Of a DNA stretch of 64,000 nt, positions 10,316-60,936 are shown one piece after another. Made by a program: the position numbers and the translations under genes. Under the pieces are notes generated by a model, which saw nothing but the letters and a program-made list of their open reading frames with translations, ran no database searches and had not been told where the DNA came from. Within the stretch, counting starts at the first letter, position 1. Each line of letters opens with the position of its first letter. Source of the DNA: Paraspadella gotoi (Eukaryota > Animalia > Chaetognatha); assembly GCA_051294375.1 (NCBI GenBank), contig CM119268.1, forward strand, positions 1,943,486 to 2,007,485, given 5' to 3'.

Positions 10316-10325
10316 AAAAAAAAAG

Positions 10326-14966
<4,641 letters not shown>

Positions 14967-36975: not shown

Positions 36976-39900
36976 TTTTAATTATACTTTTTTATATTTC
37001 ATAGCATTTGCAATTGTGAACGCACAGATAATCAGATTCAGTCTCAACACACATACTTTTTGCACCAAAAAACTAGCGGATGGAATATGGCGCAGCACGA
37101 TTTGGGGAGAATATTACTAATAATAATAATAATAATATTATTATTAATTTATTATTATTAAAATTTTCCTAACCTTGGCTCAGTAACCTAACGTACGGCT
37201 TACTATAAAATGACTCAAAAGCTTTGTTTTACAATCATGATTTTTATTTTAATTAGATGCCATCCAGCTATAAATTCAATGCAATACCATAAACGAAATA
37301 CATAAATTGCGGAATTATGTTAATTTTTGCCAGATAAGTTTACAACAGTGAAAACAACACAGTAATGACAAAGGACATCTTATGATGCTCAGTTGAAAAG
37401 TTGGATTTGTGTAAATCTTTCCCTTGTAAACAACTTGGTATCGATAAATCTTATTATAACTAAATAAATGGTTAGACTCTAACAGAAACAAACGCATAAG
37501 TGTGCCGTATTTAATTAAAATAATAAAAACGAAAAATAAAAGCACCAGTATTAACAGAAATTATATTTTGTAAGGCTGTTAAGTACCAAAGACGATATTC
37601 CGAAGAATAACGACGGATAGAGGAAAGGAAATCAAAAATAAAAAAAGAGGAACATAAAATCGTTTGTTTGTTTGTCGAATGAAATAAAACTATGGACGGC
37701 TGTTGGCTAAATAAAAACGTATATCAGTCGGTAACTCGTTTCCGATATGAACGAAGAGAAGAAATAAATAATGAAATGTATTGAGCAAATTGAATCCCGA
37801 CGCCTCGCGGGCGATAGTCTTTTGTTTCCACCAAAGACAATGGGGTCAAGAAGAAATTTCAGGAATTAATTCCTCGTTTCAATTCGAAAATATTTTGGTC
37901 ACTATTACCATTATCAAAATTAACCCTGTATAGACAAATGTTATTAGTTTATTTGTAATAACCGCTTTGCAGTTAAACCCCGGGTGTGTGATTGTGTGTG
38001 CGTTTGTGCGCGTTTACCTCACATTAAAAAGGATACCATCTAATTATTAATATATATATATTCAAATGTTAGTTCTACAGTGCAAAAAAATATATATATA
38101 TTCCCTGCCTCATTCGACTAAATACCCCGGGTGAATTCTCTTTTTTAATCTAAACCTTTCTAAAATACTTAATTCAACTATTTACTACATATTTAATTAT
38201 CACAGCGCGCTGAAAGAGAGAGTTAACTTTCATTTATTAGGTCAAAATTATGGCTTGCTCCCGTTGTTTGTTCTCTGTATCTCCAACTAACAAGGAATAT
38301 CATACTTGTGCTGATTCACTCTTGGGACAAAACGGCTTTATTTAATTTTTTTTTCGAGTCATTAGATTTAAACGAAAAAGGGAATGCACGCATTACACTA
38401 GAATGAGGCATTTAGGCATTACCACCATTTTACAAAATTTTTCCATGCACTTTGTAACTATTATTACTATCATGATGTTATCATAGCAGTTATACTAATT
38501 CAACACATATATAACATGCCCTCATCATTATACATCCATGCCCTTACAATAAATTGTATAAAAGTCATTATCAAAATATGATTTAAATCTGAAACAACAT
38601 TTCCTTCCGGAAAAACGAAGCATGAACATCTGAAGAATTTTCATAACGTTATCTACTAGTAGAGTCAGAAAAATGTCAAAGCATCCAAAGAACCTAGAAA
38701 ATATTCACATATCATGCAGAATACTTGCGGGTTCTCTGATTTCTACACTACTAAAATAAAGATGGTTAAATTCTATGTAGGAAGAGCCACAAACTTTAAA
38801 TAAAATATAATGTTTTCAAAGATCCAACCCCCCCCCAAAAAAAACAACCAAAAAATGAGATCATAAAACTTTTAGAGAGATAAAAACGTAAACAAAAGTA
38901 AAAGCCAATAAATTAATGTAAAACTAAAATTTCGCAAATCGACAATAAAAATAAATGGCTAAGTTTAATGTAGAAGCAAGTGATTTCCAAGTGACAGTAT
39001 ATAAATGGCATCAATATCGTAGGTTAAATGTGATCTCGCACACACAAAAATATCTTCAACGTTAAAAACAAACAAAAAAAAATTGTTGGTGGACAAAAAA
39101 TAAATAAATGGGCGGCATGATAATCTTTTAATTTCATATAGTGCTCACCACAAAATGACTAGCGGCGAATGAGTCGTGATCAGCGTTTGTGATCTGAAAT
39201 TCTCACAGGTTACACGGAGTTCTTAACTTATTTTCTGGAGGGGCCAGCGGGGACATTTGAGACCACTTTGACTGTGAGATGAAGCGCGTCTCTTTTTTAA
39301 CTATTTAGGCCTTAAAAACGGCGAACGTAAAATAACCGTACTTGTAAATATTCAAGTATATAAGATAATAACAATCGTAATAATCATATATCGTGAAACG
39401 AAAATAGGAAAACCTTCGATTTACGTATATATAGTTTTTTTTTTTCGTTGAAATCGAACCGTTTGAGTTAGAAAAGTGAAGACGGTAAAATATAAAACAT
39501 TTCTTCCAGTGCAGAAAACTCTTGCTTTTTTTTTCCAGTGCACTTTTTTTATTCTTTTTTTTTTGGTTGTTGTTTGTTATTCGACAATCACAGGGTCACT
39601 TGTTTCACTGACAATATAACGAGAAAATAAAGGAAGTAATGACTTTTTTTCCTTAAAGTGTTCCGTTATGAAATAAGTTATCACATACGAAGAGCGGGTG
39701 TATTAACGAGTGCGTAAACGTAAAAGAGCGGGAAAGAGAAAAAGCGTGACGCGTTCAACGAACCAACGAAAAAAAACGCGTCAATTTTTCTCTTCGCTCA
39801 CATTTATTTTTTTTTCAGCGCAGACGTTCCGTAATGTTTGAGGGGGTGGGGAAGGTGGGATGCGTCATTGTAAGCGCAGAAAGTAAATACCTCTTTTTGT

Positions 39901-40100
39901 TGTTGTTATTGTTTTTTTTTGTTGTTGTTTTTAATGGTGAAATAAACAAGAAGCCGTAGAATGTGGATGTTAGATTTTTTTTTTTTGGTTTGCTTTCGAA
40001 AACGAGTAGTACCCGTTTCGAATTGACGAGAAAAAACAAAAGCTCAAGTGCCAAAAAGATCTCCCAAAGACGAGAAAGTCTCTTCCTCCTTCTCTCCGCC

Positions 40101-43100
40101 TCAAACCATGGCCTTGTCATCATGATGGCTCCCAGTGCCCGACGACCGAGACCCGCCTCGGTTGCTGGGAATCCCGTAGTGGCTTCCACTATGATGACCC
40201 CCTGAGAAAAAAAAAGGCAAGAGTCAGACTATTTAGCAAAATAACAACTTTTTGAAAAGCTTCGTCGTATCTCGCGCGGTTTCAACACGAGCGATTGGTT
40301 AATATTTTAATGCTTTTGTCTTGTTTTGTCTCGTCTCTTTCATGTCGAGACTTGCCCACTTTCAACTTTTAACAATTGTTTAACAACAACTTTAATAATT
40401 CTAACATTAACGAGTTAATGTTAATTAACGAGTGAATTCTAACATTAACTCGTTAATGTTAATTAACGAGTTAATTCTAACATTAACGAGTCTCACATCC
40501 TCGTCGATTCCATTTCCTCCTCCCTCCTCACCAGCGGCGGCGTGGACCGAGGACCCGGCGGCGCCGATGCCCACGAGCCCGCCGGATGTGGAGTGGGTGG
40601 AACAGGAGGTGGGGCAGGTGGGTTCGTGGTGGCCGCGAGGGTAGTAAGTACCTCCGCCCCCACCAGCGCCACCGCCACCGCCGGAACCGGCCACTCCCGA
40701 TCCCGGCACCGGCCCGCCCACCCCCAAGGGGGTCTCGGGATCTCGGGGGCCGAAGCCGTAGACGCGATGGAGAACGACTTCGACGACGAAGGTGACGAGG
40801 GAGAGGATCAACCCGACGAGGGGAATGAGAAAGGCAGTGTAGACATCTTGGGGGGGATAAGGAAATCCTTTATTATTCCAATATTTATAAAAAATATATA
40901 TATATATTTAACGATGACAACTCGGGACTCACCGTTGAGAGAAATCTGTACATTGGCGGGACCTTTGTTGCTGGAGGAGAAGAGATTGTTGGGGTGATTG
41001 AGCAGGTGGGGAGATATCGAGGACTCGGCGGCGAAGGCGGAGGCGCTAACGGTGACGTCGGAGGCGGTCTCCCCGCCGCCGCCGCAATGTCCGCCACCGG
41101 TGAACCATTTTCTTAAAGAGGGGGGGAGAAAGAAGAATGAGAGGTTTGGCTTTTTTTTAAAAAAATGTTACTCGAGACATTTATATAACAAGTATTCATA
41201 AAAACTATTCATATGACAAATGTTATCCTCACTGTTGCTACAATTTCTTTATCAACAGAACTCGTTTTAGCGTCTTGGAAACTCGATTCTTCGGTTTCCC
41301 CAAACGACGCGACTTTGTGAAAAAAATCTATTGTGAAAAAGTCGCGTCGAGAAAAACAATTCGTTTCTCAATTCGCATTCACGGTATCAGAAATCGTGAG
41401 TCGAGACAATAGACAAGAAGCCAACGCTCGAGACTAAAGAAACAAAAGCCCTCAAGTGAAGCCCGAGTTCCTTTTGTATTTAACGACGCTGACTCGTTTA
41501 AAATTCCTTCTTCAGTCACACGAGCTAAACTGAGATCGATCAAACAGAATCTGCGTCTTATTCGAATATTTCCGATTTGCTATTTTTTCGAAATCTTCGA
41601 CGTCAAAAAATTTAAAAAAAAATCAATTCCGAAAAAGAAATTCGCAACAAAATGAAGTTTTTAAGAAGAACGTCGAGCAATTACGCCCAGGAACTCTCCA
41701 ATATTTTTTGCCGATCGCGCGAACATCCGCAAATCGTGAGTCGACGACGACGTTCGACGGGGATGCCTTTTTTGGTCAAGACGGCGCCGGTCCAGCGGAC
41801 GAGCCTTTCCGTCTTCGCCGCATCCACGCGCACCGACGCGCGTCAAGTCCACCGAGTTCGTCGTATGATCGAGTCTTCGCCGGAGGAAATGTTTCAAGTC
41901 GTCGCCGACGTCGACGCTTACGAGAACTTTCTGCCCTTTTGCGCCAAGAGCGAAATCCTGGAGAGACGCGGCGACGACCTGTTCCGGTGCCGACTTCACG
42001 TCCGATTTCCACCGTTCGCCGAGAGCTTCGATTCCGAGGTGCGGGGTTTGGGCCCATTAACAAATGGTCAGCTGTAACTAACAGTTTTGGTCACCCGTCT
42101 AAAAATTTTAAACTTATGAAATAACGATCGCTTTTGCAGACTCATAATAATGAAATTATAATTTTTTTTTTTTTAGGTGGAGATTGTTCGCCCTCATCGC
42201 ATCAGAGTCATCGGCGAATCCGGAAATCTCTTCCGGCGCCTCAAGGCCGAGTACCGCTTCCATCCGGTACCGACTGGGCCCTCAGGCGGAACAACGAAAT
42301 GCCTTCTCGACTTTTCTATCGCCTACGAATTGCAGAATCCGTGGCTGGGGTCCATCGCCAACGCGGCATTCGCATCAGTGCAACGACAACAGATCGACGC
42401 TTTCGTCGCGCGAGCGACGAAGTTATTCGGGAAGAAGGAAACAACAGAAACCAAGTCCGGGGAACGATGCAGTTATTAGATTAATTTAAAGTAGTGATTC
42501 TCTAACAAATGTAGAACGCAATAAATGAGTTGCAAAGTGATGATATTTTCAACGTGTCATCCTTTATACAAAATTTCTTTGTATGAAAACCGTTCGGGAG
42601 CGCAAGAGTTTTCTTTTTTTTTAATTGGGAGAAAATTGTATTCTAGTTCTACTGGCGCGCCAACGCATTTTATCATTAATAAATTCTCACAATCCCGAAA
42701 CCTGTGTTTTGTCTTCTGTTTCAAAACAAGAAACTTACCTGTAAAGAGATTGAAGATACCCATTTTCTTGAAGCTGCAGTAAAGCAAGACTAAGTGCGTC
42801 TCTCAAGGAAGAGTTCTGAGGCGTGGCAAGACCGTAGGCAATCATGTTGATGTCTCCCGGATGAACCTGAAAGCAATAAGTTTATTGTCATTATTGCCGA
42901 AACGATTTAAATCAATTAAACCCGTATAAGTTATTATTATGAACCTAAGAGCAATAAGTCTATTGTCAAAGGAGCGGAGCCTTACCACAAGCTCGCAATG
43001 TCGCGACGCGGAGTAATCGGCCATGACCCTTTCCAAGAAAAAGGCAAAGGGTTCCCTCAGCGCCCGCTGGACCCCTTCGGACACGGAGCCGACGAAGAGC

Positions 43101-45840
43101 TCGGGGTTGTCAACCATTCGGTCGTACATCGACTCGTAAAGGGAGCTATGGGAGCGACGGAAGAAGTTGTGGGTCGAACCGAACTGCAGAGTACCGTATC
43201 TAAATAATAAGAAGCCGTGGATTAGTTAAATTAAGTCATTGACAATTATTATCGCCCCTAGTTCCGTCAGCCGTCTCAGCTTCTCACTTGAGAATCCTTT
43301 TGTGGACAAGCGAATGGACGTTGGGGATGATGGTGGCGGATCCTTGGCCGCCCTGGGTCGTCACGTTGAAGAGAAGCCGCGTGGAGGCGCCGGCGGTCAG
43401 GAAGACGACGACAACGACGCAGAAGAACCACCAGGAGATGAGCAGCACCCGCACGGAGGAAGACACCGTCGACTGCGACATGCCTGTTAAAACAAAACTT
43501 TATTTAAATAACGATTTTTACACACAGTTAAATGTCATATGATACGCAGTTGGACTAATATCCAGTGAAGTGTTTTTCCCCCTAGGCTTAGTTGTGGAAA
43601 CCAAACTATCTCTTTACAATAAGCATATTCACTATTTTCCAAATCAAATACATTTGACATGCCCTAAGCGTCACCTTTTGGCGAAATCCCCGACACGAGC
43701 ATCCAAAGGCAATCGAGCAGACCCAGGTGGTGCTCCGGTCGCGTCTTGGAGTCGTGGAGGATCCCGTTGGCGCGGGACGAGGATCGAGACGGAGGCCGAC
43801 CAACGTGCGTCGCCGACAATTCTCGATCGGGGCCCAAGTTGAAAGGGCTGAAACGCTAGAGGAGAGGAATAAGGTCTTTAATTATAGGGTGCTCAATGAG
43901 GAGTTAATATCGAATGACTGAATACGGAAAAAAGAATAACTTCCGATCGCTTTTTTTAAAATCATTTTGCTTTCCCATCGCCAATTACTTTTTGTTACTA
44001 ATCACGTTACATCATTCGCCAAAACGTTATTAACGATCAAAAACAATGATAAATATTCGGTTATCAAAACTTCCATCCGTCCCTCCTCCCCAAAGATCCC
44101 ATCGACCGCCATCGCCCCTTTCCCCTCAAACCTGCAAGAACATGAGGGCGATGGCGGTGATGAAGAAGGAGGCGCCGATGAGGAGCCAAAGCTCGAGGGC
44201 GAAGACGCCGAGGAGTTGGCGATCCCAAGTGGTGGAGGGAATCGAGGGCGGTTTGTAGAGGAAGGTCACTCCCGTCGAGAGGAAGGGCTTCGTGAAGTCC
44301 ACGATTCTGGAAAAGAGGGGGAAATTAACAATTATTTCTTATTGTCAAAAAATCTATCCACGGAGTTGCGAATCACTCGCTAATTTCATATATGTCGACA
44401 ACTAAAATTAACCAACGCGTTGATGACAAAATTAAAGGCCAAAGACAAAAATCAAAGACAAAGCTTTTAACTCAACTAAGCTATAATTCTGATCTTCCCT
44501 CTCAAACCCAACGCTCACCGTTCTCGGGTCATGGTTATCGTGAGAGGGGCCGCCGCGAGATCCGCTTTGTTTTTAAGCAGTTGACCGATGATGCCGTTCC
44601 ATTCGGAATGCCCGATTTCGGATCCGTATTTTCCGTCGGGAACTTTTATCGAAATAAGAGATATCGAATTGATGAAATGACAATAAATTAATAATTAATT
44701 ATGGCAAAAAAAAAGATTCATTCGTACCCAAGTAAAGCATGTAGGGACGATCGAGGTACTGAGACAGTTTTTCGAGTAAATCCTTGATGTATCCCCTGAA
44801 TCTGTGGTTGCCGCTGAGACCCTCTCCCTCCAGCATGAGAAAGGGCGGTTCCAAGATGGAGACGACCCGCAGGGGAATCTTCTCCAGCGACGCCGTCATC
44901 ATGGCCGACCTCTGACCCATGTGACCTCGAAGGCCCGGGGTCAGCCCAGGCGGGGCACCGGGGCCGGGTCGGACCAGGGTGGATGACCCGCCGGATGATC
45001 CGCCGTCAGATCCTGGGAAAAGATTTTCATTAATTTCAATAAAGTAACATTAACTACACGAGTTGAGGTTAAAGACGCAGCAACAGAAAACCTTTCCTTT
45101 TTTTCCTCACCCGATTGAAGCGTGTATACGACGGTGTCGCTCTCTGGACCGTAACCTCCGCTGTTGCGGGCGCGGACCTTGAAAAAGTACGTCGCGTCCT
45201 GATAGAGATTTCTGACGACGAGGGAGAGCGTGTCGGCGTAGACGCCTTCCACCGTCCACGACGCCGACGATCCGCCGAGCGGAAGGCCACGCCCACCGGG
45301 CAACGCGCCGCTGGGGATGGCGCCGCCGCCCAACGGTTTCGCGGCCGCGGCGGCCTCCTGGGCCGACTTGGAAGAGGATTCGCCAGAGTTTTGCGGAGGC
45401 ACCGAAGAAGGATCTTTGGGTTTGTAGAAGATCAAGTAGCCTGGAAAATGGGGAGGAGGCGGTGAAGAGTTCAAACTCTCCCTCTCTCAGACTTAAATGA
45501 AATGAAATAGCTTTGTATGGCCTATTGTTTTATTTTGTGCCTAAAGCCCCATTGTCATTGAATAAATTCAAATTCTCTCTCTCTCTCTCTCACCCGTAAT
45601 CTCCCCCTGCGGCTCGCTCGGCGCTTCCCAGTTGAGGCGCACCGCATCGGGGTTGCCCTCGACCGGGTGAATCGTCAGCCGCTGCGGCGCCGAAGACGGC
45701 GGCGCCTGCTGCATCTCCCCGAGCAACACCGCCGGCAGCGTTGCCAGCATCAGCGAGCGGAGCCATTTGGCGCGCAACGGCGGCGCTCCGTAGCGGCGCC
45801 GGCGGGAAGGGAAGCGTAGCGGGCGGGAAATGAAAAGCAT
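40101..45840 (-). CDS. Divergent ionotropic glutamate receptor-family protein with an N-terminal FN3 domain; exons 45840-45594, 45440-45111, 45012-44728, 44642-44519, 44306-44132, 43855-43675, 43483-43288, 43199-42986, 42866-42739, 41111-40933, 40846-40532, 40201-40101
   Basis: S1 (LRVVSILEPPF...FRGYIKDLL...PDGKYGS...WNGIIGQLLKNKADLAAAPLTITMTRERIVDFTKPFLSTGV), M1 (LWLLIGASFFITAIALMFLQRFSP), M2 (DCLWMLVSGISPKG), M3 (RVLLISWWFFCVVVVVFLTAG), S2 (YGTLQFGSTHNFF...EGVQRA...FAFFLE...YGLATPQNSSLRDALSLALLQLQENGYLQSLYRKWF...C), M4 (DVYTAFLIPLVGLILSLVTFVVE). All junctions are GT-AG and in phase. Confidence 0.9.
41652..42479 (+). CDS. COQ10: COQ10-like START/polyketide-cyclase domain protein; exons 41652-42038 and 42177-42479
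   Basis: SPEEMFQVVADVDAYENFLPFCAKSEI...FPPFAESFDSEV...LFRRLKAEYRF...CLLDFSIAYELQNPWLGSIANAAF...IDAFVARATKLFG matches the COQ10 pattern. The N-terminus is Arg/Ser-rich like a mitochondrial presequence. The intron is phase 0. Confidence 0.9.
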
Positions 45841-45888
45841 CGTCGGCGGGATTTTTTCTTTCGATAAAGTTGGTCGCGGGAGGGGAAG

Positions 45889-45961
<73 letters not shown>

Positions 45962-47771
45962 AAATGGAATTCACTCGTTTTCTCCAGGGTCTTGGACCTT
46001 CGTCGATAGGAGTCTTCGAAGGAGGATGCGAAGCATCGTGGAAGCAAACATCGCGACGCTCTTGATTATTAATTGTAGACTTTCTTCCCGTTTATTCGCA
46101 TAAATCGCGAGAAATGGCAAGTTTTGCGTATAATTTTTTTTTTTTAGCTACATTCAAAACAAAAATATGCTTAATAAACTATCGTATCATAGAGATTATT
46201 CGGCTTACTGATTCGTAAAGTTAATGAAAGATCAACATACAATTTTTGTCTTAAATATTATGATGATGATGATGGATATTGATACCATTAAGAAACACAA
46301 TACAAAACAGGTCGGTGAAAAGGACGCCACTCGGTGGTTTTGTTTGGTTTTTTTTTGTTTTTTTTTTGTTTTGGTTTTTGAAACTAGAAAATTAAACTGT
46401 TTAGAAGAACCAGTTTTTTATAATGAATTACTAGAATTGTTAAAAAAAATTAAACCAACTTTGACTAATCTGATTTAGAATCAAACTGTATTCTGTATCT
46501 GTAACAGGAACAGAAAAAAAAATTATTCTAATAAAACTTTTTGACTAAAAACGTAAAATACTGTATAAAAATAAACACTGCATCTTGCCAATGCCTTAAA
46601 TAGTAAGGAATGTAAAGAATGTAAGGAAGTAAATTTTTAAATAACCTTCACTACAAGTCGTGCCAAATATTAGCTATTACTCGGTAAGAAATAATTAACG
46701 CAATAACATAATAAAAAGAAAAATAATGCTCTAGGGTAATATTAACGATCAATCGACGTACTGTACAATTACTGTCTGCGTTCTTGTTTTTTTTACAAAT
46801 GTCTAAGTTGAAAGACTAATTGCAATATATGATAAAAAGCTTAATATCTATAACCTTTCCGCAAAAGGTTTGCATCAGACTTCAATTTGAATACTAATTA
46901 AAAACTAAATGAGAGTAAAAATGGTCATCATCATCAACAAGAGGGGCTCTAAATGTACATGGATTGCTATTGCAAAATGTCATGGTAAATCTCTTACAGT
47001 AAAAGCCGTCGTCTATTCGTGTCGAATAAATAAATACAGCAGTTCAGCTGATAAAGGATATTTCAAAATATTGTAGCAACAGATCATTTCACATTTATAA
47101 TATAAATCGTATATATTGTATTCCAATATTTCTTCCAAATCAACGCTTTTACTGGACTGACGAAAATTCTTAATTTTTTATCCTTTTTTTTTTAGATTAG
47201 TAACCTATGAGAACATCAAAAAACAGCGAACAAGTGAGTTGGTAAAAAGGTGAAACGCTTTTAAAGTTGAGTTAGTAGACAATACCAAACACATCGTCTG
47301 TCTCTTTATTTTCAGACAAGTGCGAAAAAATAAAATCCCATCTTCTCACTCCGCCCCCAAAAAAATATGAGATCGTCAGGAAATAAATTTTGGTTTTGGG
47401 TAACAAGAGTATTTCGAGAGGAATCCAGCCTCAGTTCTGAGTAACAATAGCATCACTTACGTATAAAACGCATTTTGGGTTGACAAGGATTTTTTTTTTT
47501 ACATTTTTTATCGTTAAGATTTCGTTAGTAATTTTTGATTGTCACGGGGAAAACTGATTGTAAATGGTAAAGTGAGTAACGTTGTCTAAAAACGGACGAA
47601 CAAAAACCAATCAAAGGCATTAAAAAAAAAAGATAATGAGAATGATTTAAATTGGCCCAAAAAATATCCGTTTCACCCATCCCCGCATCTCTAACACGCA
47701 AGATACAAAATACACGCACACACGCACGTCGCACGCAGAGAAAAATAAATTTCGCCGAAACGTTTGTTGAA

Positions 47772-50700
47772 TTAAACGTCCGTTCCTTTTCCTTCCAACT
47801 CCGGCGTGAATCTGACTTTCATGTTGTGAGGGTGAGGGAGCGTATTCGACGAGAAGGGAGGTCGCATGCCGGGTTGGAGTTGCTGCAGTTGCTGCCGCTG
47901 CCGCGGAGGTTGCAGAGGATTAGACAGCCTCGGCGGCGCCGGGGCCGGCGTAGACCGAGCGTCGCTGGCGACGACGACGACAGCGGGAGCGGAGAATCCC
48001 GCCCCTGACGCCGGCGTCGGGGAAGCGGCGCTATTCTCGGAAACGAAAGATCTTTGGGGGAACAGGTGATGCGATGGCGTCTGCGGCAGAAGGTTACGCT
48101 GCTGCTGCTGCTGTTGCAGCAGATGGTGTTGCGGGTTAAAGTCGGCGGGGGGCAGATTGACGGGCGTGGCGGTGGAGACAACGGAACCGGAAGTGGGCGA
48201 TGAGGAGGGAGAGGCGGCGAATCTAGGATCCGTCCGCTCGGCCTCGCCCTCCTCGCTCAGCCCGCGATGGGGCGACGCCATTTCCGAAAAGTCGAGGAGT
48301 TCGGGCGGCGGCGGCGTGAGTCCCAGCGCCACACGATGCGCCGCCTCCTCCGGCGACAGGTTGCGCGAGAGTTGCTGATAATAATTTTGGCTGAGAGGAT
48401 CCGCCACCCAGAAGGGCGTCTCGTCGGCGACGTTGTAGACGCCGCCAACGTCGTCACCGCCTCCTTCAACCACCGACGACAAGAGCTCGTCGAGATCGGG
48501 CGGCCGACCCCCGGCGGCGATCCGCTGCGAGAGCGCCAAGCACTCCAGCGGGGACAGGCCGAGAAGGGCAGGGTGATTGGCGGGAAGGGATTGGCTGGAA
48601 GCAGGGAGGAGGCCCGGCATGTCGCCGAGGTGAGAGGGCGGCAGTATAGAGTTGGGAGAGAGGGCGTGGGAGGGGAGTTTGCCGGAAGGAAAGATGGGCG
48701 TCTCGAGGACGGAGGCGGGACCGACGAGGCGGGGTGAAGAGAGGGTGGCGGGGTCGGACGAATCGAGATGATCCCTGTCTTCGTCCTCGCCGTCGGGGCC
48801 GTCGAGCTCCATGGCGCTGGTGAGTTGACGCCGCTCCGAGTCCACCATCATTTCCACCCCAGGCTCTTCGACGATCGGAGCAAAGAGATTGCCTAAGAGG
48901 GAAATAAAAAAGAAGGTAAGAATTATTAATCCATCCCTTCCACTCCCCAGCCTTTTTAATTATTAGTAATTATTAATCTATCCCTTACACTCCCCCAGCC
49001 TTTTTAATTATTAATTATAAATCCATCCCTTCCACTCCCCCTGCCTTTTTAATTATTATTAAACATTAATCCATCCCTTCTACTCCCCCAGCCTTTTTAA
49101 TTATTAATTATTATTAATCATTAATTCATTCCTTCCACTCCCCCAGCCTTTTTAATTATTAATTATTATTAATCATTAATTCATTCCTTCCACTCCCCCA
49201 GCCTTTTTTCAATCACCTGTCAACGCCGCCAATCGATCTTCTCCGGTCAGACTCCGCGGGTCCTCCCGGTAAATCCCGCCGAGAAGTCCCTCGATCGGGA
49301 CTTCGTCCTCGGCGTGGGAGAGGCCCATGGGAAAGCGGAGGCCCAACCCGGGAAACGCCCCCTTCGCCTCTTGCTCCTTGAGGAAATTCTGCAGCTTTTC
49401 TTCGTCCGGAACGGGGACCATAGGCGGGGGAGGATGATGGGGCGGATGGGGCGGCGGCGGAACCGGCGCGGGCGGCGCCGACGGCTCTATCGGGGGCAGG
49501 TCGTCTGTAGAGGAGTTTTAGGCACCGACTCATTGACCGAGTCGCGGCGGGAGGGTTCCTCGACGGAATGGGGTTGTCCGACAAGCCTTCCGCCTCCGCC
49601 GCCAGAACCTGACGCTGCCGCCGCGTTTGTCTTCATCGGGCTTGGCGTCTTTGGCGTCGGATTCGTTGGTCGTCGAAGGACTCGCCATGGTGGTCACCGT
49701 CGAGGTGGGCTCCTGTATCCGGGGTGAGGGGGGTTCGTCCATGAAGTATATATATTATTTAAAAGTTAAAATTGGTATAAATTATAATCTATGACGATAA
49801 TTCGAGCTACGATAACTTCGAAAACCTCACCTGCGCGGGGACCTTGCTGAAGGGTACGTTGTCGAACCCTGCCAGGCAAGTTTTGGACCTCAACTTGTCG
49901 TCGCGCAGCTTCTTTTGCCATCGAAAGACGACGGTGCCGACGGCGAAGACGACGATGAAAAGCAAGAGCGCGATGACGCCCATGATGAGTTTTATGAGGA
50001 GGGTGCTGCCGCGCGGCCGGAACGCGTCGTCAGCGTCGCCCTCGTAGCCGGAGACGGTTCCGACCGTGGAGGGCGCAACGAGCGGCGGTCGCGGGACGAC
50101 GGCGATGTGCGTCACCATCTGCACCTGACCCGCGCTGTTGGAGGCGAGACACTTGAATTCCCCGCTGGTGGCGTTGGTCATATAAGGAATGCGCAGGGTG
50201 CTGACTTTGGTGCGGTGGCCGCTGGCTTCAGGAGTGGAATTGAGGGATGAGAATAAAATGAGAAATTTATCGTCATCCGCAGTTGACATCCGGATCGAGA
50301 GACTCACCCTTGGTGGTGATAACGAATTCCTTGTCACCCCAAGGAATTTCCCTTCCGTCGTGAAACCAGCGAGGCTTGGTGGGCGGATCCGAGTAGACTC
50401 GACACGTGAGATTCGTCGCTCCAGAGTTTTCCTCGAAGGTTTTCGTCGCGATGTCGGGGACGAGCAGCTCCGGAGCGCAGGCGAACGACACCGGATCGAG
50501 ACTTCGCCAGTTGCGGTCCTGGAAACGAGGAAAGAAATTTTGTTTTCGTTTTTACGGAAAACAACCGCAGCGATACAAGATATCAACGACAATATCCATT
50601 ATCCAATATCCTTTTCACCACCGTCACCTGCACGGTGTCCGGAGACGCGCATTTCGTGAACTTTGACACGAGATCGTAAGTAACGTTGGGCGTTCCGACG

Positions 50701-51882
50701 AGAACGCGGAGCCACCGGAGATCGCACGTGCAGTGCCATTTGTTGTTGTATAAGTAAAGGACGTTGAGGTGCGAGCGCGCGTCGTCCAACACGGAATATC
50801 GCATCGTGCGCAGACTTATGCAATAAAAGAAATATCCCTCGGTTAAACATTTTATCCAGCATAGCCGGAGCGAAATATCACCAACGATTTTTATATTTCC
50901 AACACCTGTTGTGCGCCAGGTGGAGAAATCTGAGACTGTAGAGCCCCCTGAAGGCTGTCGGTTGGAGTTCTCTCAGACCGCACCCGTTCAACTCCAACTT
51001 CTCCAAAGAAGGTAGATGAATGAAGGAGTCGTTCTGGATCACTTCCAACTTTGAATTGTGACTCAGTTTCAGCCTGGAGATCACGAGAAGAAAAGGAGAG
51101 AAAGACGTCTTCAAACTTTTCGCCTTCAACGCGGCCATTCTCTTTCCTCATTCTTTTACCTCTGCAAATATTTGGTGTCGGTGAAAACTTCCTTGGATAT
51201 GCGGACGATCCTGTTGGAAGAGAGATCGAGCTCCGCGAGATTGACGAGTCCCCTGAAGGCGCCGGGCTCGATGGTGGTGATGGCGTTGTTGCTCAGGTAC
51301 AACTTTTGAAGTTCTGGCAGTCCGGCAAAGGCCCCGTCGGCTGAAACGGCGAAAATTATGGATGGATCTTTTGAATACGTAGTACGTACAATTAATTATT
51401 GTTATTATTATTATTATTATTATCGAAAAAAATTCACACAAATATTATTACGGAAGAAATTAGAGAATATTTCCCTCACCTAATTTAGCGAGTTGATTGT
51501 GATTCATGTACAAAATGATTGTTTCCGTGTCGACGGTCGGAATGACGCTCAGACTCAAGTGATTGCACTTGGTCTGCTTCTGTCCATTGATCAGCTTGGT
51601 GGTGCACTCGGAAGCCCCTGGTCGCGACACACCGCGGGCCCATTGGGGCAGACTCAGCCAGTAGCAGGCTAGTAGCCATGGCAACCACCGACCGTATTTC
51701 GTGGGACGACGTCCCTTTTTCACTGATCGTGAAAAGGCTACGGGTCGGCGCGTACGATTCGAGAGCGCCTGCGACGAGTCGAGCGTCGGGACGCGTGACG
51801 GCGTCCACGCCCACCGCGGATCGAGCGCGCGGCGTCCTTTCTCGATTTGGCGCATTTCATTATTGGAATCGGAAGTTATCAT
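47772..51882 (-). CDS. LRR-Ig single-pass membrane protein, kekkon-like; exons ~51882-51480, 51340-51160, 51073-50906, 50814-50628, 50518-50308, 50225-49831, ~49713-49217 (internal structure uncertain), 48892-47772
   Basis: Signal-like stretch, LRRNT (CNHLSLSVIP), LRRs (LQKLYLSNNAI, LAELDLSSNRI, LEKLELNGCGL), LRRCT (NKWHCTCDLRWL...CASP), one Ig domain (NLTCRVYSDP...W...SGEFKCLASNSAG), a TM helix (LIMGVIALLLFIVVFAVGTVVF), and a long tail ending GTDV*. Confidence 0.85.
48920..49208. repeat. Intronic minisatellite (aattattaatccatcccttccactcccccagccttttt) x ~6
   Basis: Tandem ~45-55 bp units in the last intron of the LRR-Ig gene. Confidence 0.9.
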
Positions 51883-52709: not shown

Positions 52710-55700
52710 TCAGTCTTTATCAATATATTCGGCTAAGGCAGAGTTCTCGCGCATCTCCTCCGCCGACATTTGTTTCGTGTCCAAGAGGTGATCGAAAAAA
52801 GTCTTACGAGTCTTGAAGTCGGCGAATCCCACGTGGACTTCTTTGCCGTCGAGCGAAGTTCCTTCGATCGCCATCACAGCCTCCATCGCCGTTTGCTTCT
52901 TGTCGAACCGGATCAGACCCTTAAAAGAAGGGGGGGGGGGAGAAAATTGATGTAAAATGTTGGTAATTGTTTCACGTTAATTAAAACTAGTTGATAATTT
53001 TCCGCCATTTCCGCAAATCTGTTGAGCCGTATATGTATCATAGTTTAACAACATTTTTCTTATCTCTTCTTCTACCCCCTAACACATTAGCCCAAAGAAA
53101 CAGATCTACCTACCTGGGAATTTTTCCTGTCGATAAAGACGTCTTTGACGACTCCGTATTGTCCGAACTGAGTTCTGAGATCAGAGGTAGAGATGAAGGA
53201 CGCGACGCCTCCGCCGAGAAAAACCCAAGCGGTCATCCGGTTGGCCAACTCTTCCTTGTGAAACTCCACATGTAGATTTCGTTTTCTGAATGGAAATCAA
53301 ACGCAACATTACATTCAGTATTCAACAGATTGGTTCGAAAAACAGCAGAACTTACACCAGTCTCTTCAGAGGCGTGGGTTCTTATCTTAATAACAAAGAA
53401 TAAATATTTAATTTCAACGATTTTATCCTAATATCTGACCTCAGGGAGTATCGTTGGCATCTCGTCTCTCGCCTTTTTAAGGCTGGCGAAAGAGGCGAAG
53501 CTGATGTAGGCAGTTTTGGTGGGACCGCGGTAGGCGATAAAAGACCTTGACAACTTTGCCATATTGTCCGAAGATCGACTTCAACTCGTCCATCGAGACT
53601 TCATTATCGACGTTGGCCACGTAGAGGGTCCAGGTGTCGGAGTCGGCCTTGGAAGAGTTGCGTCGTTGTAGTCTTCGTCGACGTCGCTGTGGAGGCCGCC
53701 GTCACGGAGTCAGCCATGGGTCCGGCTTCTTTGCCTCGAGAATTCGTTATAATCTTCCTCGGATCCGAAAACTAGCTCTTCGGCGACGGCGGTGCCGTGG
53801 AAAGCCAAGAGCCCTCGCCGACCGTAGTCTTCGTTCTGGTAGACGACGAGCGCGTCGATTCCTGGGTCGGTTCGGCGAAACAGAATCTCCTTAAGGATTG
53901 AAGAGTGGGAGGGGAGGTAATAAAATGTTAGCTAAACAGTTTTGCCCACGAACTTACCAAGACAGATCCGTAGTGGTCGAACTGCGAGTACAGGTCATTC
54001 TTAGTGAGGTGCGTGGAAATATTTCTCAGAGGATCATCGGGGATAAAGTTCTGTAGGAAACTGGGATAATGAGAGGATACTTTCCCCCCGCGAGGCTTTT
54101 GAGGCGATTCCGAAGTCCGTTGGTATCGCGAACTGCGGCGACGACGGATTTGAATTCGACAAAGTCACGTAGACTTGAACTTGACCCTCGACTTGGAGCC
54201 GTTTGAATATCTGTGGCCTTAACTCAATGTCCAGAAGTCTCCGTATCGGATAGATCTTCTCGAGGGTCTCTCCGGTCGTGAACTCGGCGTCGAGTCTTCC
54301 CAGAAACAAAACGGCGGGAGGTCGATTCTCGGCCGGTAGGGGGCGGAGTTCTTCCACGTTGGAGGACAAGCGCAGAATCAATCCGCCGAATTGACGCTGG
54401 ATCGGTTTGTAAACGCCGCCGTTCTTAAAGGGAGGAAGTAAATATTATTGTAAATAGCTGGTTAAAACATCCAATATAACTTTAGTCCACCAAAAAAACC
54501 CCTTTCTGTTCAACAATAAGAATATTAATAGTTTTTCAATATTGACTTTCTATCAAGAACAGAGGGCAGAAAGCATTTTAACCTCGTTTTGCATTCGCAA
54601 ATTAAGAATTGGTTTTAAAAATTTATTCAAGTAGTCCTGTAATTTTTATAACACATTCAACCAGTCAATAATATATTTTTAACATTTCATAGCACCTTGA
54701 ATAGTTTTCTGGCGACGGCGACCGAAAAAGAGACAAAGGCCGCTTTTCGCCCTTCGAAATCGACGTTAATGTGAGAGCGTTCGACGCCCTTTTGTTTGAA
54801 TTCGTCGTAGATGGCATCTTGAAGATGGCGCTGCGTCAGATAAGCCGGAAATCCTTGAAGACGGACGTCGACTCGAGCTTCGGAAGCGGATCCCGCGGCG
54901 GAACTGGAAGCGGTTGGGTCCGCAGAACCCGATTTGCGTCGCGGGGAGGAAGATTTTCCCCCCGGTCGTCCGGAACGGCCTTTTCCCTGGTCCCGCGAAG
55001 ATGAACGATCTGTCGGCCCAGCGCTAGGACTTTTTCCGCGCTCCGACGAGATGGACCGTTTTTCCGGCAAAGCCGTACGCTTCTTTTCGCGCTCCGGCGA
55101 AGCGGATCGTTTTCCCGGCCGAGCGGAATGGTCTTTAACGACGGGAACGTTGCGAAGATGCGGGGAATGGGATCTTCCACTCGTGGGATCTGTCGATTCT
55201 TTGCCGGTTAAAAGCTCGGGGGAGGCCTCGTTGGGAGAAGAGGTGACGAGTCGATGGACTTGAGGTCCGTTGGAGATGCTGATTTTCAGCGGTTTGATCA
55301 CGGGAGAAGCGGATGCGGTTGCGGCGACGGATGTACTCGGAATCGGCAAGAGAGTTCGACGGACTTGACGCGTTTCGGAAACCGTCGCAGCTGTCTTGGT
55401 CAATGTACGATCCTTCGCTAAAAGGAGATTGCGGAAAGAAACGAGGGTTAATCACGCGGACGTGTTATTCAATATGAAGAAAAGGATGTACTCACTTTGA
55501 GTGTTTTTCCTCGATTTCAACCGAAAGGCTTTGATAGCCGTCTCTATCTCTCCACCTCCAACATCTCGTCGCTTCTTTTTCTCGACTGGGCTGAAACCAA
55601 AGACATAGGTTTGTACTGACAAGTACCAACTAAATGTAGCCATCTATAATGGAATTCGTAAGATGGCTGGAACAGATGGAAAAGCGTCAGAAACTTATTT

Positions 55701-56257
55701 GTGTTATGCTGACATTTATCAGATTTTTAAAAATAAATTTTTAAAAATAAAACGATTAATTCCTATGAAAAATATGGATATTTTTTCTCATTGCCTTCTT
55801 AATTCTATCTTGTTGCTGAATCATTCTTGACATGAAATAAAATTTCAATAACTGAGTTTGTCCACGATGTTTCTCATTAAGTGCAACTTTCACCAACCTC
55901 CTTTCTGCTTCGACCAGCGAGGGATTTTCGTCGGGGCGCAACTGAACTTCCGCGTCGCTTCCGGTGGATCTAATGGCGTCGTCGAAGTAGGCGTCGACGA
56001 GAGACTTGGAGCCGGCGACGCGGCGATTCTCACACGCGTCCTCCTCCACCAGCAACAGCATTCGTCTCGACGTCAGGGTTGACATCTTTAGAAACGATTC
56101 TGCGAAATGAGGAAGGGTTTTGTTTAAAGCGTCTCTCTCTCTCTCTCTCTGTTTCTCTCTCCTCACCTAAAATGATTTTGGTCAACTCATTCTCGCGTTC
56201 CCGAATCGTAGATTCGAGTTTCTGAACGGCGGGGTCAATACTTTTTGATTTTTCCAT
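52710..56257 (-). CDS. Multi-RRM protein (Spen-type RRMs) with N-terminal MADS-like module, multi-exon
   Basis: Exons include 56257-56167, 56099-~55899, ~55590-55496, ~55418-54696, ~54423-, ~54050-53958, 53889-, ~53600-53440, ~53285-53114, 52919-52710. RRM-like segments are VRLQGFPAYLTQRHLQDAIYDEFK, TLYVANVDNEVSMDELKSIFGQYGKV and WVFLGGG...FGQYGVVKDVFIDRKNSQGLIRF...LDGKEVHVGFADFKTRKTFFD. Splicing between ~54170 and 53600 is not fully resolved. Confidence 0.7.
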
Positions 56258-56738
56258 GGTTTTATCGGGAATCTGTCTGATGTATAAATATTAAACAGGT
56301 TTTAAAAATAAGTTCGCGAGTGACTTAAATAATAACGAATCATGAAGATGGCAGAGAAGATTTCCAAGGAGAGAAATGAGATTGCTCGAATACATTCGTT
56401 TGGTGAGCTCTACGTACTATCTTTGGGAAAATATTTCCAAATTGCTAGTAATGCAAATTTATTCTTACCTTCCGAAAAAAGTAAGTAAATAATGTATAAT
56501 TGTACATGAAAAGTCACTTAGTCTGCATTCCCGAAATATCTAGATGCTATTTACTATTAAATTATTTGTGAAAAAATGTATTATATAGGTACGTATAATA
56601 ATGATAAAATAAAAATTTTCGCGCGTCTTTTCATTTCCCAGATAGCCATAAGCGAGACAAACAAAACTAAACGTCAAATAAAAAAACATGCACAGAAAAT
56701 AAACTTCAAATATCATTATAAATAACTTTAAACAACTT

Positions 56739-58777
56739 CTACATGCTAGTTAATCCCAAGTTGGAATCGTTGTGCAACGAATTCGCGTTGGGTGGCAAGT
56801 GGTTCAAGTCTTGGGAGAGAGATTGCATGTGGCCCGAGTATTGCCGCTTGTGCTCCATGTCTTGCAAGACCTTGTCGAGGGTGTTGCCGAAATAGCGCTG
56901 CATCGTCTCTCGAACACTCCCTCGAAGCGGCAACATTTTCTTGCCCTTTTGCAACTTGACTCCTTTGTTGTTGAGCTCCTTCACGGGAAGAGGGTAGGAG
57001 GTAAAAAGCTCCATCTCAGGAGGCGGGGAAAAAAACCTCAAAAACACCAAACCTGCAAAAACGGAAACTGGCTCCACCAAAGTTCGAAGATCTTGTTGAA
57101 GAACATCTTGGCCTCGACGGCCTTTTTGTTTTTTATGGCGCAGTTCTCGGCGATGGCGCGACCCACGGTGTAGAGGACGGAGTGGAGCAGGCGATTAGAG
57201 GTGGAGTGCTTCTCCGCGATGGAGTCGTCGCGGATTTGCTGGAGCGCTTGGATCTTTGGGTTGGACGAGAGGAAGGCGCCGAGATCCCAACCGCCCACGT
57301 TGTTCAATTGTCCCGGATGTGGAGGCTGATACGGCACGACGGCCTTGGAGACGGGAGACCTCTGCTTGGACGACCTGCTCCGCCCCCTCTTCCCGAAACC
57401 CCTCGTCGACTGAAGCGGAGAGCGATGGAGGTGATGCATGGGAGGTAATTGGGTTTGACTCGAATAATTCTCGTTCCATTGATTGTGGTGGTTGTCGTAA
57501 AAAGGGTCGCCGATGCCATCGTCCATCACCGCCGCCGCATCGGCGCCGCAAACAAAGTCGGCGTTGACGTCGAGCCGATGCCGCGCGAAGTCGGACTCGT
57601 CGAAGTCGATCGACTGGACGACGGCGTGGATCTCGGCCCCGGCGCCGGCAGCCGCGACGCCGAGAGGCGTCGGGAGGTAGTTGTCGCAGATGACGTCGTC
57701 GTCGTCTTCGACGCAATCTCCGTCGAAGGCCGGCGTCAACGCCTTTGTCCGCCGCATAAGGAGTCCCGTCTCCGCGTCGAGATCTTCTTCCGTCGTCTCC
57801 ACTTTCACGTCCATCGCCAAGTCCTTCTGGAATCTTCGCGGCGACTGCGACGGGAGGCCGGGTCGGCGGCGGTGCCGGCGCCGCCGGGGAGAGATCGAAT
57901 CTGGCGCCGCCGAAAGATCGTCGCCGGAGAGGTCGGAACCCGCGCCGGTCGCGTTGGGGTCGGTAGAGTCTTCGAAGAAAGGCTAAAAAAAGAAGAAAAA
58001 AAGATGTGCGTTGAAAACTCCGCACAATATAGTATTCCCCGATCTAATGTGGTCTTTTCATGCGATTGAAACATTCTTTGAAATATTATACCACTTCATT
58101 GAGAGGGGAGTGAATAACCGAGACCGTGAGAGAGTCTGGGTTCAAAGCTTGCAGGGACCTGCTATGTCATTATCTTGTAAGAGTGATGGAGGCCTTAAAC
58201 CACCAAAGCCTGTCCAAAGTCAGGGGCAAGATAGCTTAGTAATTAAACGAATGGATAATTTTCATATTGGTTGTAACAATTTCATAATTATTCTTATGGC
58301 TTATGGCTTTTAACCTGATAACCATCGTTCCCTCCACCCTTGTCCGCCGACGGAGTAATGATTCGTCTCTCGCTGACGCCTGTCGTCGCCACGTTGACGT
58401 CCATCTCAACGTCGTTGCCGATCGGCGAAAGCGAGGAGCGAGCGTAGGCGTCGCAAAGATGGCGCGCGCCGCAAAAACGGCGCCCTGTGCTCGTCTCGAC
58501 CAACAGGAAAATGTTGGCGTCTGAGGGGGAAAAAAAATTAAAATGATGATTAAACGGGAAATAAATAACTGACATAAAAGATAAGGTCATCGGAGCCAGT
58601 CGGAGGAACTACAAATCGAATTTTTTCGCCGAATAAACCCGTACAATATCTGAAGAGAGCATTTTCACCTGTCAGCGAAGAGATCTTCATTGCACTTTCC
58701 ATCAGAATGACGGCCATGCTCGACTCGAGCGACTGCAGCTGATTCATGAGACCCAACAGACTCGACTTGGACGCCAT
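56739..58777 (-). CDS. Uncharacterised protein with N-terminal MADS-like module, acidic linker and helical C-terminal domain; exons 58777-58669, 58520-58315, 57982-57053, 57014-56739
   Basis: In-phase GT-AG joins give MASKSSLLGLMNQLQSLESSMAVILMESAMKISSLT|DANIFLLVETSTGRRFCGARHLCDAY...|PFFEDSTD...RRRRHRRRP...DVKVE...LWWSQFPFLQ|MELFTSYP...LGLTSM*. Codon composition is GC-rich like the neighbouring genes. Confidence 0.75.
58041..58299 (+). mobile_element. Dispersed ~260-bp repeat, intronic copy
   Basis: Reverse complement of 63283-63567; shares gcctgtccaaagtcagggNcaagatagctta and ttggttgtaNcaatttcataat. Confidence 0.75.
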
Positions 58778-59001
58778 TTTTCCCCTTTTAAACTAATCAC
58801 ACTGAAAAAAGAAATTGAGCACAATTTTTATCAACGAGTATTAAACTAAAAGAAATCGGGAGAACAACAAATGAGAACTGAGAAGGAAAACTGAGTTGCT
58901 TAAATTTTATGAGTGAACAGTAAGAAACAGAGAGAGAGAAAAAACTGGATGGCACGGCTTGACGAGAGAGAGAGAGGGAGAGCGAGACAGATAGAAGACG
59001 G

Positions 59002-60936
59002 TTAATCTTCGCAGAGGATAATTTCCCTGGTGCCGATCAACGTTCCTTGCATCTTGTCCACGGCCTCGACGAGCGAGTTCCGCCGCGCGAACTCGACGAA
59101 GGCGCATGCGTCTTCTCCTCCGCGATACTTGATCTTGACTCCCACGACGGGACCGAAGGGCGAGAAGTGACGCCGCAATTCGTTTTCGTTGATGGTTTTG
59201 TCCAGGTTTCCCACGAAGACAACGTGCTGCAAAGAAGAAATCAATTCTTGCAAATCTACTCAATAAATTAGCCACAATTTCCCACCCCCCAATTTTGTAC
59301 GTGGTACCTTTTCAACTTTCTCCGCCGAAGACTCAATCGTGGACGGATGAGATCGAGTCCCCTCCTCAACACTCTTTTCCGTGACGACGTCTTTTTCCTT
59401 CTTCACCGAAACCGATCCGTTCACGACGAGGGGTCCTGGGTCTCGCGACGAAGTGCCAAAATCCAAAGTCTCGGTCGAAGTGTCGGAAATCTCTATCCCT
59501 CCCAAGTTATTAGAACATCTGCCGCCGTCCCCTTCCTCGCTTTCGGAAAAGTTTTCGCCGGAAACGTCGCTCATGTAATCCTCCGCCGTTTTTTTCTGCG
59601 GTTGTTTTTTTAGTTGGACGTTGGCGGCGGCGTCGCTCGAGCTACCGCCGCCTCCGTCGCCGCAGCTTCCCGAATTCGCGTCCAAAAACTTGTTTTGAAA
59701 ATCTCTACCGGCAAAATCGACCTCGAGGTAGTTCCCGCCTAAAGAGGTGCTGTTTCTGAGGGCGCGCTCGGCGCGGCACGCTTCTTCCTCCGAATCGAAG
59801 TATACGAGGGCGTTGTTGGGCGAGCGGTTGATGAAGACGTCGACGACGTTGCCGAAAAGTCGACAAAAGGCTTCGATCTCCGCGTTATTGATAGAGTCCG
59901 GCAGGCCGCCAATCCACACGCAGTTGGAGGGCACAGCCTTGGCGTAGGACAGCCCCACGGTAGAGCTCGGAAAATGCTGCCGGTACTTTCGCAGAGCCTT
60001 GGCCGCTTGTGAGATGGTAGCGTATTCGACTTGCAGGGTGTCGTGAGCGAGGTCCTCGATGGTCGGGGCGGAGAGGTCCACGACGTCGCCGTAGTGAGAC
60101 AAGCGCTCGCGAAGAGTAGGAGCGGGAACGGAGGCAGCGTTACTGAGGAGAAGCGTCTTCCGCGCCTGGTCCGGGATCTTTCGGTAGAAAGCGACCTCTA
60201 CTTTGGCGTATTTGGAGAAGGAGTTGAAGAGCAACAAGTGGGAGCGATAGGCCTTCATCGCTTGCGCCGAAAATGGAAACTCTACGATGGCGAATCTCTT
60301 CGATCCTTCTCCCTCTACGCGGATCGAGTCAACCGAAAAGGACGAGTAAACTTTTTCCAGATCCGCGCGAACCGCGGCGTCGGCGATTTCGGCCGGAAGG
60401 CGGCGGACACAGAGAAGACGGCAATTGGCGTTCGAAAGCGCGGGAGAGACGCTCGGTTTGCGTCTCTTAATCGACCCGGCGGCGTCGTCGGTGGCGGGAG
60501 GGGGAGCGTCGCGCTTGCGCTTGAGGACGTAGTCCCGCATTAAAGGGGGAGGAGCCGCTTCGGACTCGCGGGATCCGCTGGAGCGGGCCTCGTTCGTGTC
60601 GCGAGACTCTCGACCCTCGGCGATCTTTGCCCGCAGGTCCTCTTTACGCCTCGAAAAGGCGGAAAGACGATCCGCGGAGGAAGACGGCGTCGGACCTTCG
60701 GACAAGTTGATGTCGCGAACGGAAGGTTTTAAGTTTCCAGCGTCGTATTGTTCCTTCATGAGGCCTTTGGAGTAGATGAACCTGGCGCCCAAGTCCGACT
60801 CGACGGCGAAGAAGACTCCCGCGTCCATCAGCGTCGAGAACTGTTGCACAGTTTGAAAAAGGATTTTCACGACCTCCACGGATGAGACCGTCGTCTTCCC
60901 TCCAACGCGATCCATGGCAAAGTTTTTCACGTTCAT
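59002..60936 (-). CDS. Spen-like multi-RRM protein with N-terminal MADS-like module; exons ~60936-59308 and ~59227-59002
   Basis: Long ORF with three RRMs. SYAKAVPSNCVWIGGL and LGGNYLEVDFAGRDFQNKF resemble Spen/SHARP RRM4 (GFGKSMPTNCVWLDGL...IGGNKIKVDFANRESQLAF, from recall). A fourth RRM (VFVGNLDKTINENELRRHFSPFGPV...AFVEF) lies in the short last exon. Confidence 0.8.

Follow-up and report, generated by a model that had tools for sequence, protein, structure and literature searches.

The 64,000-nucleotide (nt) window analysed here (Paraspadella gotoi, contig CM119268.1, positions 1,943,486 to 2,007,485) carries on its minus strand, at 45840–39815, a gene of 12 exons encoding a protein of 919 amino acids, with the stop codon ending at 39815. 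The protein is composed of a signal peptide, one fibronectin type III (FN3) domain, a linker, an ionotropic glutamate receptor (iGluR) core with the ligand-binding halves S1 and S2 and the membrane segments M1–M4 in the order S1-M1-M2-M3-S2-M4, and a tail; it has no amino-terminal domain (ATD). The first three exons (45840–45594, 45440–45111 and 45012–44728; 247, 330 and 285 nt), proposed in a preliminary description of this DNA, form a single open frame, and the introns of 153 and 98 nt placed between them have GT donors, AG acceptors and phase 1 each. Beyond these three, nine further exons carry the same frame on to the stop at 39815. We are highly confident that this spliced chimeric architecture is real.

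Encoded at the start of exon 1 (45718–45840; all exons are on the minus strand) is a putative signal peptide (residues 1–41), consisting of an Arg-rich stretch and a hydrophobic core (residues 29–41) that gives a hydropathy peak. We infer cleavage before Glu42, because the signal peptide of a relative, P0164, ends at the same Glu; Met31 is a possible shorter start. The rest of exon 1 (45594–45717, residues 42–82) encodes the N-terminal half of the FN3 domain, and exon 2 (45111–45440, residues 83–192) its remainder together with an insert. Exon 3 (44728–45012, residues 193–287) opens with a Gly/Pro/Ser linker of about 43 residues, followed by the start of S1. S1 continues through exon 4 (44519–44642; Pfam, alignment and PDB matches) and ends in exon 5 (44132–44306; Pfam, hydropathy and alignment), which also holds the pre-M1 segment and M1 (about 44197–44132). 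The cytoplasmic loop and the M2 pore helix are in exon 6 (43675–43855; alignment and joints in RNA-type contigs), and M3, with the gate-motif region at 43403–43377, is in exon 7 (43288–43483; alignment).

S2 is distributed over exon 8 (42986–43199; PDB matches, alignment and relatives 94% identical), exon 9 (42739–42866) and exon 10 (40933–41111), the last of which contributes the end of S2, the second disulfide Cys and a long S2–M4 linker. Exon 11 (40532–40846) encodes M4 (about 40838–40770) and a Gly-rich tail. Exons 9–11 are supported by RNA-type joints and alignment, and exon 11 by hydropathy as well. The coding part of exon 12 (39815–40200), attached through the joint 40200/40531, adds a 128-residue tail assigned with low confidence; its GC content at third codon positions (GC3) is 0.49 and its composition resembles that of an untranslated region. 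Run exon by exon on 11 exons, Pfam detected Lig_chan-Glu_bd on exons 3–5 (E = 3e-7 on exon 3) and Lig_chan on exon 7 (E = 0.004).

Transcript support comes from Logan contigs of the public run X1, for which the RNA type is only guessed and in which 0.52 of the sampled words are present; the public runs X2 and X3 contain almost none of the sampled words. Compared over 39000–50000 of the window, the X1 contigs show 10 of the 11 introns spliced, every joint being GT–AG and at depth 26.3. These include the junction at 45111/45012 singled out for checking in the preliminary description: a joint at 45011/45110 skips the 98 nt and leads from FN3 to S1 within one contig, with 255 letters on its shorter side. 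In record 1 (5318 nt, depth 26.3), exon 2, within the FN3 domain, lies at 327–658 and exon 10 at 1961–2139; the gap between them is 1303 nt, exactly exons 3–9. A single exonic difference separates the X1 contig from the genome within the gene, a synonymous third position at 40719 in exon 11, and exon 7, with M3, has no letter differences.

The joint between exons 1 and 2 (intron 1) is not among the X1 joints, from which two repeat-sited joints were dropped, and a GA run flanks its donor. Upstream of exon 2, record 1 continues for 326 nt without running into intron 1, and retention of that intron would end the frame at codon 91; its splicing is supported indirectly by the positions in record 1 and by the relative P0164. 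Contig depth is explained by record 1 alone to within 0.5 in 6 of 13 bins. In the bin 40101–40531 the depth is 21.8, against 7.2 explained by the spliced contig, an excess that would possibly come from transcripts in which intron 11 is retained and the encoded tail is shorter.

The gene leaves no room for an ATD, as had been claimed: in-frame stops occur 76–77 codons upstream of the ATG, and the interval contains no Met. The 1.9 kilobases from the ATG up to the stop of the neighbouring gene have a GC content of 32%, against 58–70% in measured exons, and hold no stop-free frame over 83 codons; the assembly has no N between 32787 and 64000. None of 14 ATD queries had a match in the window at E ≤ 0.1, and PF01094, the LIVBP-like ATD, was not found by Pfam on exons 1–3.

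The FN3 domain is divided by an intron. Pfam fn3 scores of exon 1 (E = 0.037) and exon 2 (E = 7e-5) each fall under the curated cut-off because the intron splits the domain between the exons. For the exon 1 half, the best PDB matches are the second domain of the DCC FN5-6 constructs 5x83 and 4urt (E = 2.9e-6), followed by neogenin and by the single-domain entries 2ede and 1x5k, the latter from neogenin; used as a PDB query, P0164 agrees, with FN6 of DCC/neogenin best. For the exon 2 half, integrin beta-4 (1.7e-7) stands ahead of the last FN3 of neogenin/DCC (4e-6 to 2e-5). The two halves fall one after the other on a single domain of DCC/neogenin, FN6, its last FN3. The description of the domain as neogenin/DCC-like is supported in that both halves match FN6, with exon 2 matching integrin beta-4 slightly better. 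Inserted into the loop after strand C is a low-complexity segment of 45–50 Gly, Ala, Pro and Ser residues (about 45411–45262).

With the spliced model, no second FN3 was found in the window, and among the best 60 of 207 PDB matches of exon 3 there was none that would make the DCC/neogenin stalk the source of the linker. A search of exon 2 against longer proteins gave one match among 1351 candidates, a bacterial-type FN3/leucine-rich-repeat (LRR) protein; DCC and neogenin were missed as well, so this blank is weakly informative.

One intron lies in the middle of the FN3 domain and one at its 3′ border, with none at its 5′ border. Exon shuffling of a phase 1-1 module, as first proposed, is not borne out: an intron marks the 3′ border alone, and the FN3 domain starts within the exon of the signal peptide, as it also does in P0164. 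A better fit would be a signal-plus-FN3 5′ fragment that became joined at intron 2 to the exon of S1, or an intron that was lost later.

Below the linker, S1 and S2 form the two halves of a ligand-binding clamshell (PF10613 and PF00060) split by M1–M3, as indicated by Pfam, PDB matches and alignment. The PDB matches of exon 3, the S1 start, are best to GluD2 and GluK1/2 (among the best 60 of 207), and those of the other clamshell exons to GluK1/3 and GluK4/GluA4. Residues were aligned with the ligand-binding domain of rat GluA3 (P0144) and with GluK5 (P0121), and are named here in GluA2 numbering. Kept in S1 are the equivalents of E402, Y450, P478, T480 and R485, the last four being Tyr293, Pro320, Thr322 and Arg327 of exon 4. 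Kept in S2 are both cysteines and the equivalents of G653, S654, T655, E705, M708 and Y732, namely Gly520, Ser521, Thr522, Glu569 and Met572 in exon 8 and Tyr595 in exon 9; T686 is replaced by Val. Glutamate binding is associated with R485, an acidic residue at 705, and Gly653/Thr655 (PMC6307864, section 7). Since this rule is followed, the pocket is predicted to be intact and its ligand to be glutamate.

The membrane part is more altered. Hydropathy peaks at residues of about 359–389, 431–444, 453–488 and 685–718 are in register with GluA/GluK, and three membrane helices and a re-entrant pore loop are present, with the pore-loop Gly and spacing kept. At the Q/R site is Pro446 (43681–43679), followed by Lys447, and the acidic +4 site of the pore is Ser. 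The SYTANLAAF gate motif, 'essential for channel gating' in a passage of PMC6307864, keeps two of nine residues (Thr3 and Ala4). In gap-free register with the GluA/GluK rows, Thr482 (43382–43380) occupies the lurcher position A8, and gate position 7 is changed as well. Exon 7 gave no iGluR match in the PDB at E ≤ 1. The early view of the product as a chimeric ion channel stands for the chimera, whereas the channel part is less certain, gate and pore being strongly altered.

Close relatives were found as fragments. A search with exon 1 returned P0164 as sole candidate (ENA, 71 residues, 82% identical over 55% of the query). It has a different, textbook signal peptide; the similarity starts at the equivalent of Glu42, runs through the FN3 half and ends at the same intron point as exon 1. 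P0164 shows what appears to be the same signal-plus-FN3 exon in another genome. Exon 3 matched P0001 (92% over 64 residues; one of 275 candidates), a gene call made on unspliced DNA, which begins with the counterpart of the Met at 44920 and continues into the intron. Exon 8, searched against 1.84 billion representatives, gave 237 matches at E ≤ 0.001, of which the top two (P0003 and P0004) are fragments from JGI/IMG and ENA at 94% identity and the next reach at most 48%. Across these ENA and JGI/IMG fragments the signal peptide differs freely, while identity is 82% in the mature FN3, 92% in S1 and 94% in S2. A JGI metagenome match (427 pattern matches, one locus, 16 residues at 69%) was rejected as an orthologue.

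The core is likely to be a divergent non-NMDA glutamate-receptor subunit: its best PDB and library matches are of the AMPA/kainate/delta/phi (AKDF) type, and closest by identity is an Acanthaster GluK2-like protein (XP_022103507.1, 35% over 414 columns). Trees were built from 64 rows, leaving out P0155, P0162 and P0163, and, with a mixture model, from 34 chosen rows; neither set has named delta, phi, epsilon, NMDA or ionotropic receptor (IR) rows. In the 64-row tree the 98* set containing the core is a long-branch group. Two of the compared proteins are probably products of annotation. P0011 (Lineus longissimus XP_064648822.1, 989 residues) has two tandem ATD-less iGluR cores with signal-like starts and worn gates, and is probably two adjacent genes merged. 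P0163 (Steinernema KAK0425193.1) has a BAR domain ahead of a full iGluR, and is probably a merged gene model, because shorter members of its cluster lack the BAR domain.

Intron 9 of the receptor gene (1627 nt) contains, in antisense orientation, a two-exon gene of the COQ10-like START-domain type (41530–42621, plus strand; PF03364, Atlas 0.91) with its own RNA-type contig (record 2). The upstream neighbour (46384–51395, minus strand, the same as the receptor) encodes LRR repeats, a probable immunoglobulin (Ig)-like part, a single membrane helix and a long tail rich in Pro and Gln. Its last exon, unspliced, spans 48891–46384, so that the 3′ region ends about 540 nt above the receptor ATG; contig depth persists through 45973–46339, and the two transcripts therefore abut or read through. 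Further away are a Six1/2-type homeobox gene (10188–11095, plus strand; SIX1_SD, E = 4e-18), with His/Ala-rich sequence downstream among assembly gaps, and RRM-containing open frames in 52713–60969 on the minus strand, including one of 569 codons at 59263–60969 (RRM_1, E = 2e-14). Upstream of the Six gene are near-identical translated stretches (2–241/2425–2604, 944–1323/9282–9662 and 1761–1925/10064–10195), which may stem from a local duplication or from haplotypes assembled twice.

The reading that we prefer, tentatively, is that the gene is a chimera with a signal peptide and one DCC/neogenin-FN6-like domain in the place of the ATD, whose product would be a tethered glutamate-binding accessory subunit that gates poorly alone. 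The signal peptide would put FN3, linker and clamshell outside the cell, where the intact pocket would bind glutamate and the clamshell close. Assembly would have to do without an ATD and proceed through the clamshell and the membrane helices, most likely with conventional subunits; a possible model is given by the ATD-less tuning subunits of insect IRs, which pair with co-receptors, IRs being obligate heteromers of a co-receptor and divergent tuning subunits (parts of bioRxiv 10.64898/2026.09.30.755715). AMPA receptors are anchored at synapses by the ATD, and those without it still reach synapses (parts of PMC5370185); on its flexible 43-residue linker, FN3 may take over this anchoring through an extracellular partner, though not by the canonical mode of netrin or RGM binding. 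In the mixed channel, gating, the passage of Ca2+ and the block by polyamines would all be affected by the changed M2 and M3. Several points weigh against the accessory subunit and the model beneath it. A worn gate is not proof of poor conduction, as worn gates also occur in some Lambda and Phi receptors (in a passage of PMC6307864). The core sits on a long branch, and the mixture-model trees, whose bootstrap had not settled, place it in no supported class. The relatives were called individually, each on a short unspliced contig, and may be neither joined nor from one species; transcript evidence comes from a single run in a single study, in which a contig is not a single molecule; and the exon 1–2 joint is supported only indirectly.

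The altered pore could also mean that the protein carries no current at all. It would then be an organiser, comparable to vertebrate delta receptors, that binds glutamate and a trans-cellular FN3 partner and scaffolds or signals without ions, a reading that we regard as unlikely though worth serious attention. In its favour are a gate reduced to two of nine residues, Pro at the Q/R site with Lys adjacent and the acid lost at +4, the blank PDB search of exon 7 at E ≤ 1 beside clamshell exons that do match iGluRs, an S1 start closest to GluD2, and an adhesion-type FN3 at the tip. However, the protein retains all four membrane segments as well as the Gly and the spacing of the pore loop, delta receptors of invertebrates do work as channels (in passages of PMC10861852), and the pocket signature is that of glutamate, not of glycine or D-serine. 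Thr482 would suit the opposite outcome, a natural lurcher channel, homomeric or heteromeric, that leaks at rest and whose leak is tuned by glutamate. The residue aligns with A8 without gaps, next to a changed position 7, and A8T renders receptors of the delta, AMPA and kainate classes constitutively active to a substantial degree, but has little effect in NMDA receptors (both in passages of PMC3434102). With seven of the nine motif positions different, a rule from single mutants may not transfer, and the relatives found include no M3 fragment in which conservation of Thr482 could be seen; we hold such a channel to be improbable. We give similarly little credence to a hybrid subunit that would be open or primed at rest by the lurcher Thr, would sense glutamate, and would be positioned or switched by a guidance or adhesion ligand through the DCC/neogenin domain.

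A guidance-cue receptor channel, in which FN3 would bind netrin or RGM and couple the cue to channel position or gating, was implied by the preliminary description and is in our view quite improbable. The closeness of the domain to FN6 speaks for it, as RGM contacts both FN5 and FN6. Its canonical ligands, however, need more than FN6: in passages of PMC8063088, netrin binds FN4 and FN5 of DCC/neogenin, and the minimal region for RGM is FN5-6, with the specificity loop in FN5. Canonical binding of netrin or RGM is therefore unlikely for a lone FN6-like domain. The insert of 45–50 residues, and an exon 2 slightly nearer to integrin beta-4 than to neogenin, likewise tell against it. Least probable of all, and largely refuted, is an artefact or a pair of genes, with the FN3 exons in another transcript and the channel starting from the ATG at 44920, as the preliminary description had allowed. 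The unlisted exon 1–2 joint, the start of P0001 at the Met equivalent to 44920 and the nature of Logan contigs, which are not single molecules, leave it some room. Against it, an X1 contig joins the FN3 and S1 exons through a GT–AG splice with 255 letters on its shorter side and in exact register to exon 10, and the sequence has no N between 32787 and 64000. A start at 44920 would have no signal peptide, P0001 is an unspliced-DNA gene call that reads into the intron, and the upstream neighbour has its own stop near 47775 and an unspliced 3′ region to 46384.

The architecture itself is likely to be undescribed. Loss of the ATD is already known: most IRs are without it (in a passage of PMC2924276), and five of 17 chosen iGluR relatives are ATD-less by Pfam. 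No fn3 was detected in any of these 17 Pfam-scanned relatives, the five ATD-less ones included, in 188 proteins with an iGluR core (72 with at least 80 residues before S1), or in the 30 Atlas clusters nearest to an ATD-less iGluR (PF01094 excluded; clusters of at least 50 members); the combination of FN3 and Lig_chan, which the preliminary description had considered might be common in databases, is absent from these sets. An FN3–iGluR fusion was not found in the literature, in titles and the beginnings of abstracts or in passages of PMC5536051, and 'fibronectin' and 'FN3' do not occur in the main text of the iGluR phylogenies PMC12226733 and PMC6307864. Two short motifs of the protein were unmatched in the text supplements of these two papers, where gapped alignments could hide a motif, and in the supplement of PMC10861852. 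The statement that no example had been described thus agrees with these searches, which are not exhaustive. What the window holds is a real, expressed domain swap on a known receptor core, apparently restricted to a lineage.

The ATD is regarded as anchoring iGluRs and determining their partners, and the natural variants known so far retain it, have lost it or show it in decay. With a single axon-guidance-receptor domain in its stead, this protein offers a natural test of the modularity of the tip and of the ability of an adhesion domain to do the work of an ATD. The combination of an intact pocket and a rebuilt gate, its lurcher site occupied by Thr and the Q/R site by Pro, bears on whether iGluRs with worn gates conduct, a question raised for Lambda and Phi receptors in a passage of PMC6307864.

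With AKDF-branch subunits (GluK1-5, GluA2-4 and GluD1-2) the protein shares the order S1-M1-M2-M3-S2-M4, the pocket residues and the S2 disulfide cysteines; it differs from them in having FN3 and a linker instead of a LIVBP-like ATD, a gate motif with two of nine residues, Pro at the Q/R site and a long branch. Insect tuning IRs, the chordate 'probable glutamate receptor' clusters, which we take to be of the kainate-binding-protein type, and Lineus XP_064648822.1 likewise have a signal peptide soon before S1 and often a worn M2 and M3, but in these ATD-less relatives the signal peptide leads straight to S1 or the N-terminus has no known domain, and no fn3 was seen in the five ATD-less proteins scanned or the 30 Atlas clusters. 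Vertebrate GluD1 and GluD2 similarly combine an adhesion role at the tip with a ligand-binding core, and the lurcher A8T mutant has Thr at A8 in common with this protein; unlike it, GluD has a true ATD and an intact gate motif, and lurcher is one mutation (passages of PMC10861852 and PMC3434102). DCC/neogenin FN6 (2ede, 1x5k, and the second domain of 4urt, 5x83 and 4bq6) accommodates both halves of the FN3 domain in order. DCC, neogenin and frazzled have four Ig domains, six FN3 domains, a single membrane helix and a P1–P3 tail. That architecture is not present here: the one FN3 stands alone after the signal peptide, with no Ig domains, no FN1-5 and an insert of 45–50 residues, and it leads to an iGluR clamshell, whereas FN6 of DCC/neogenin leads to a single membrane helix.

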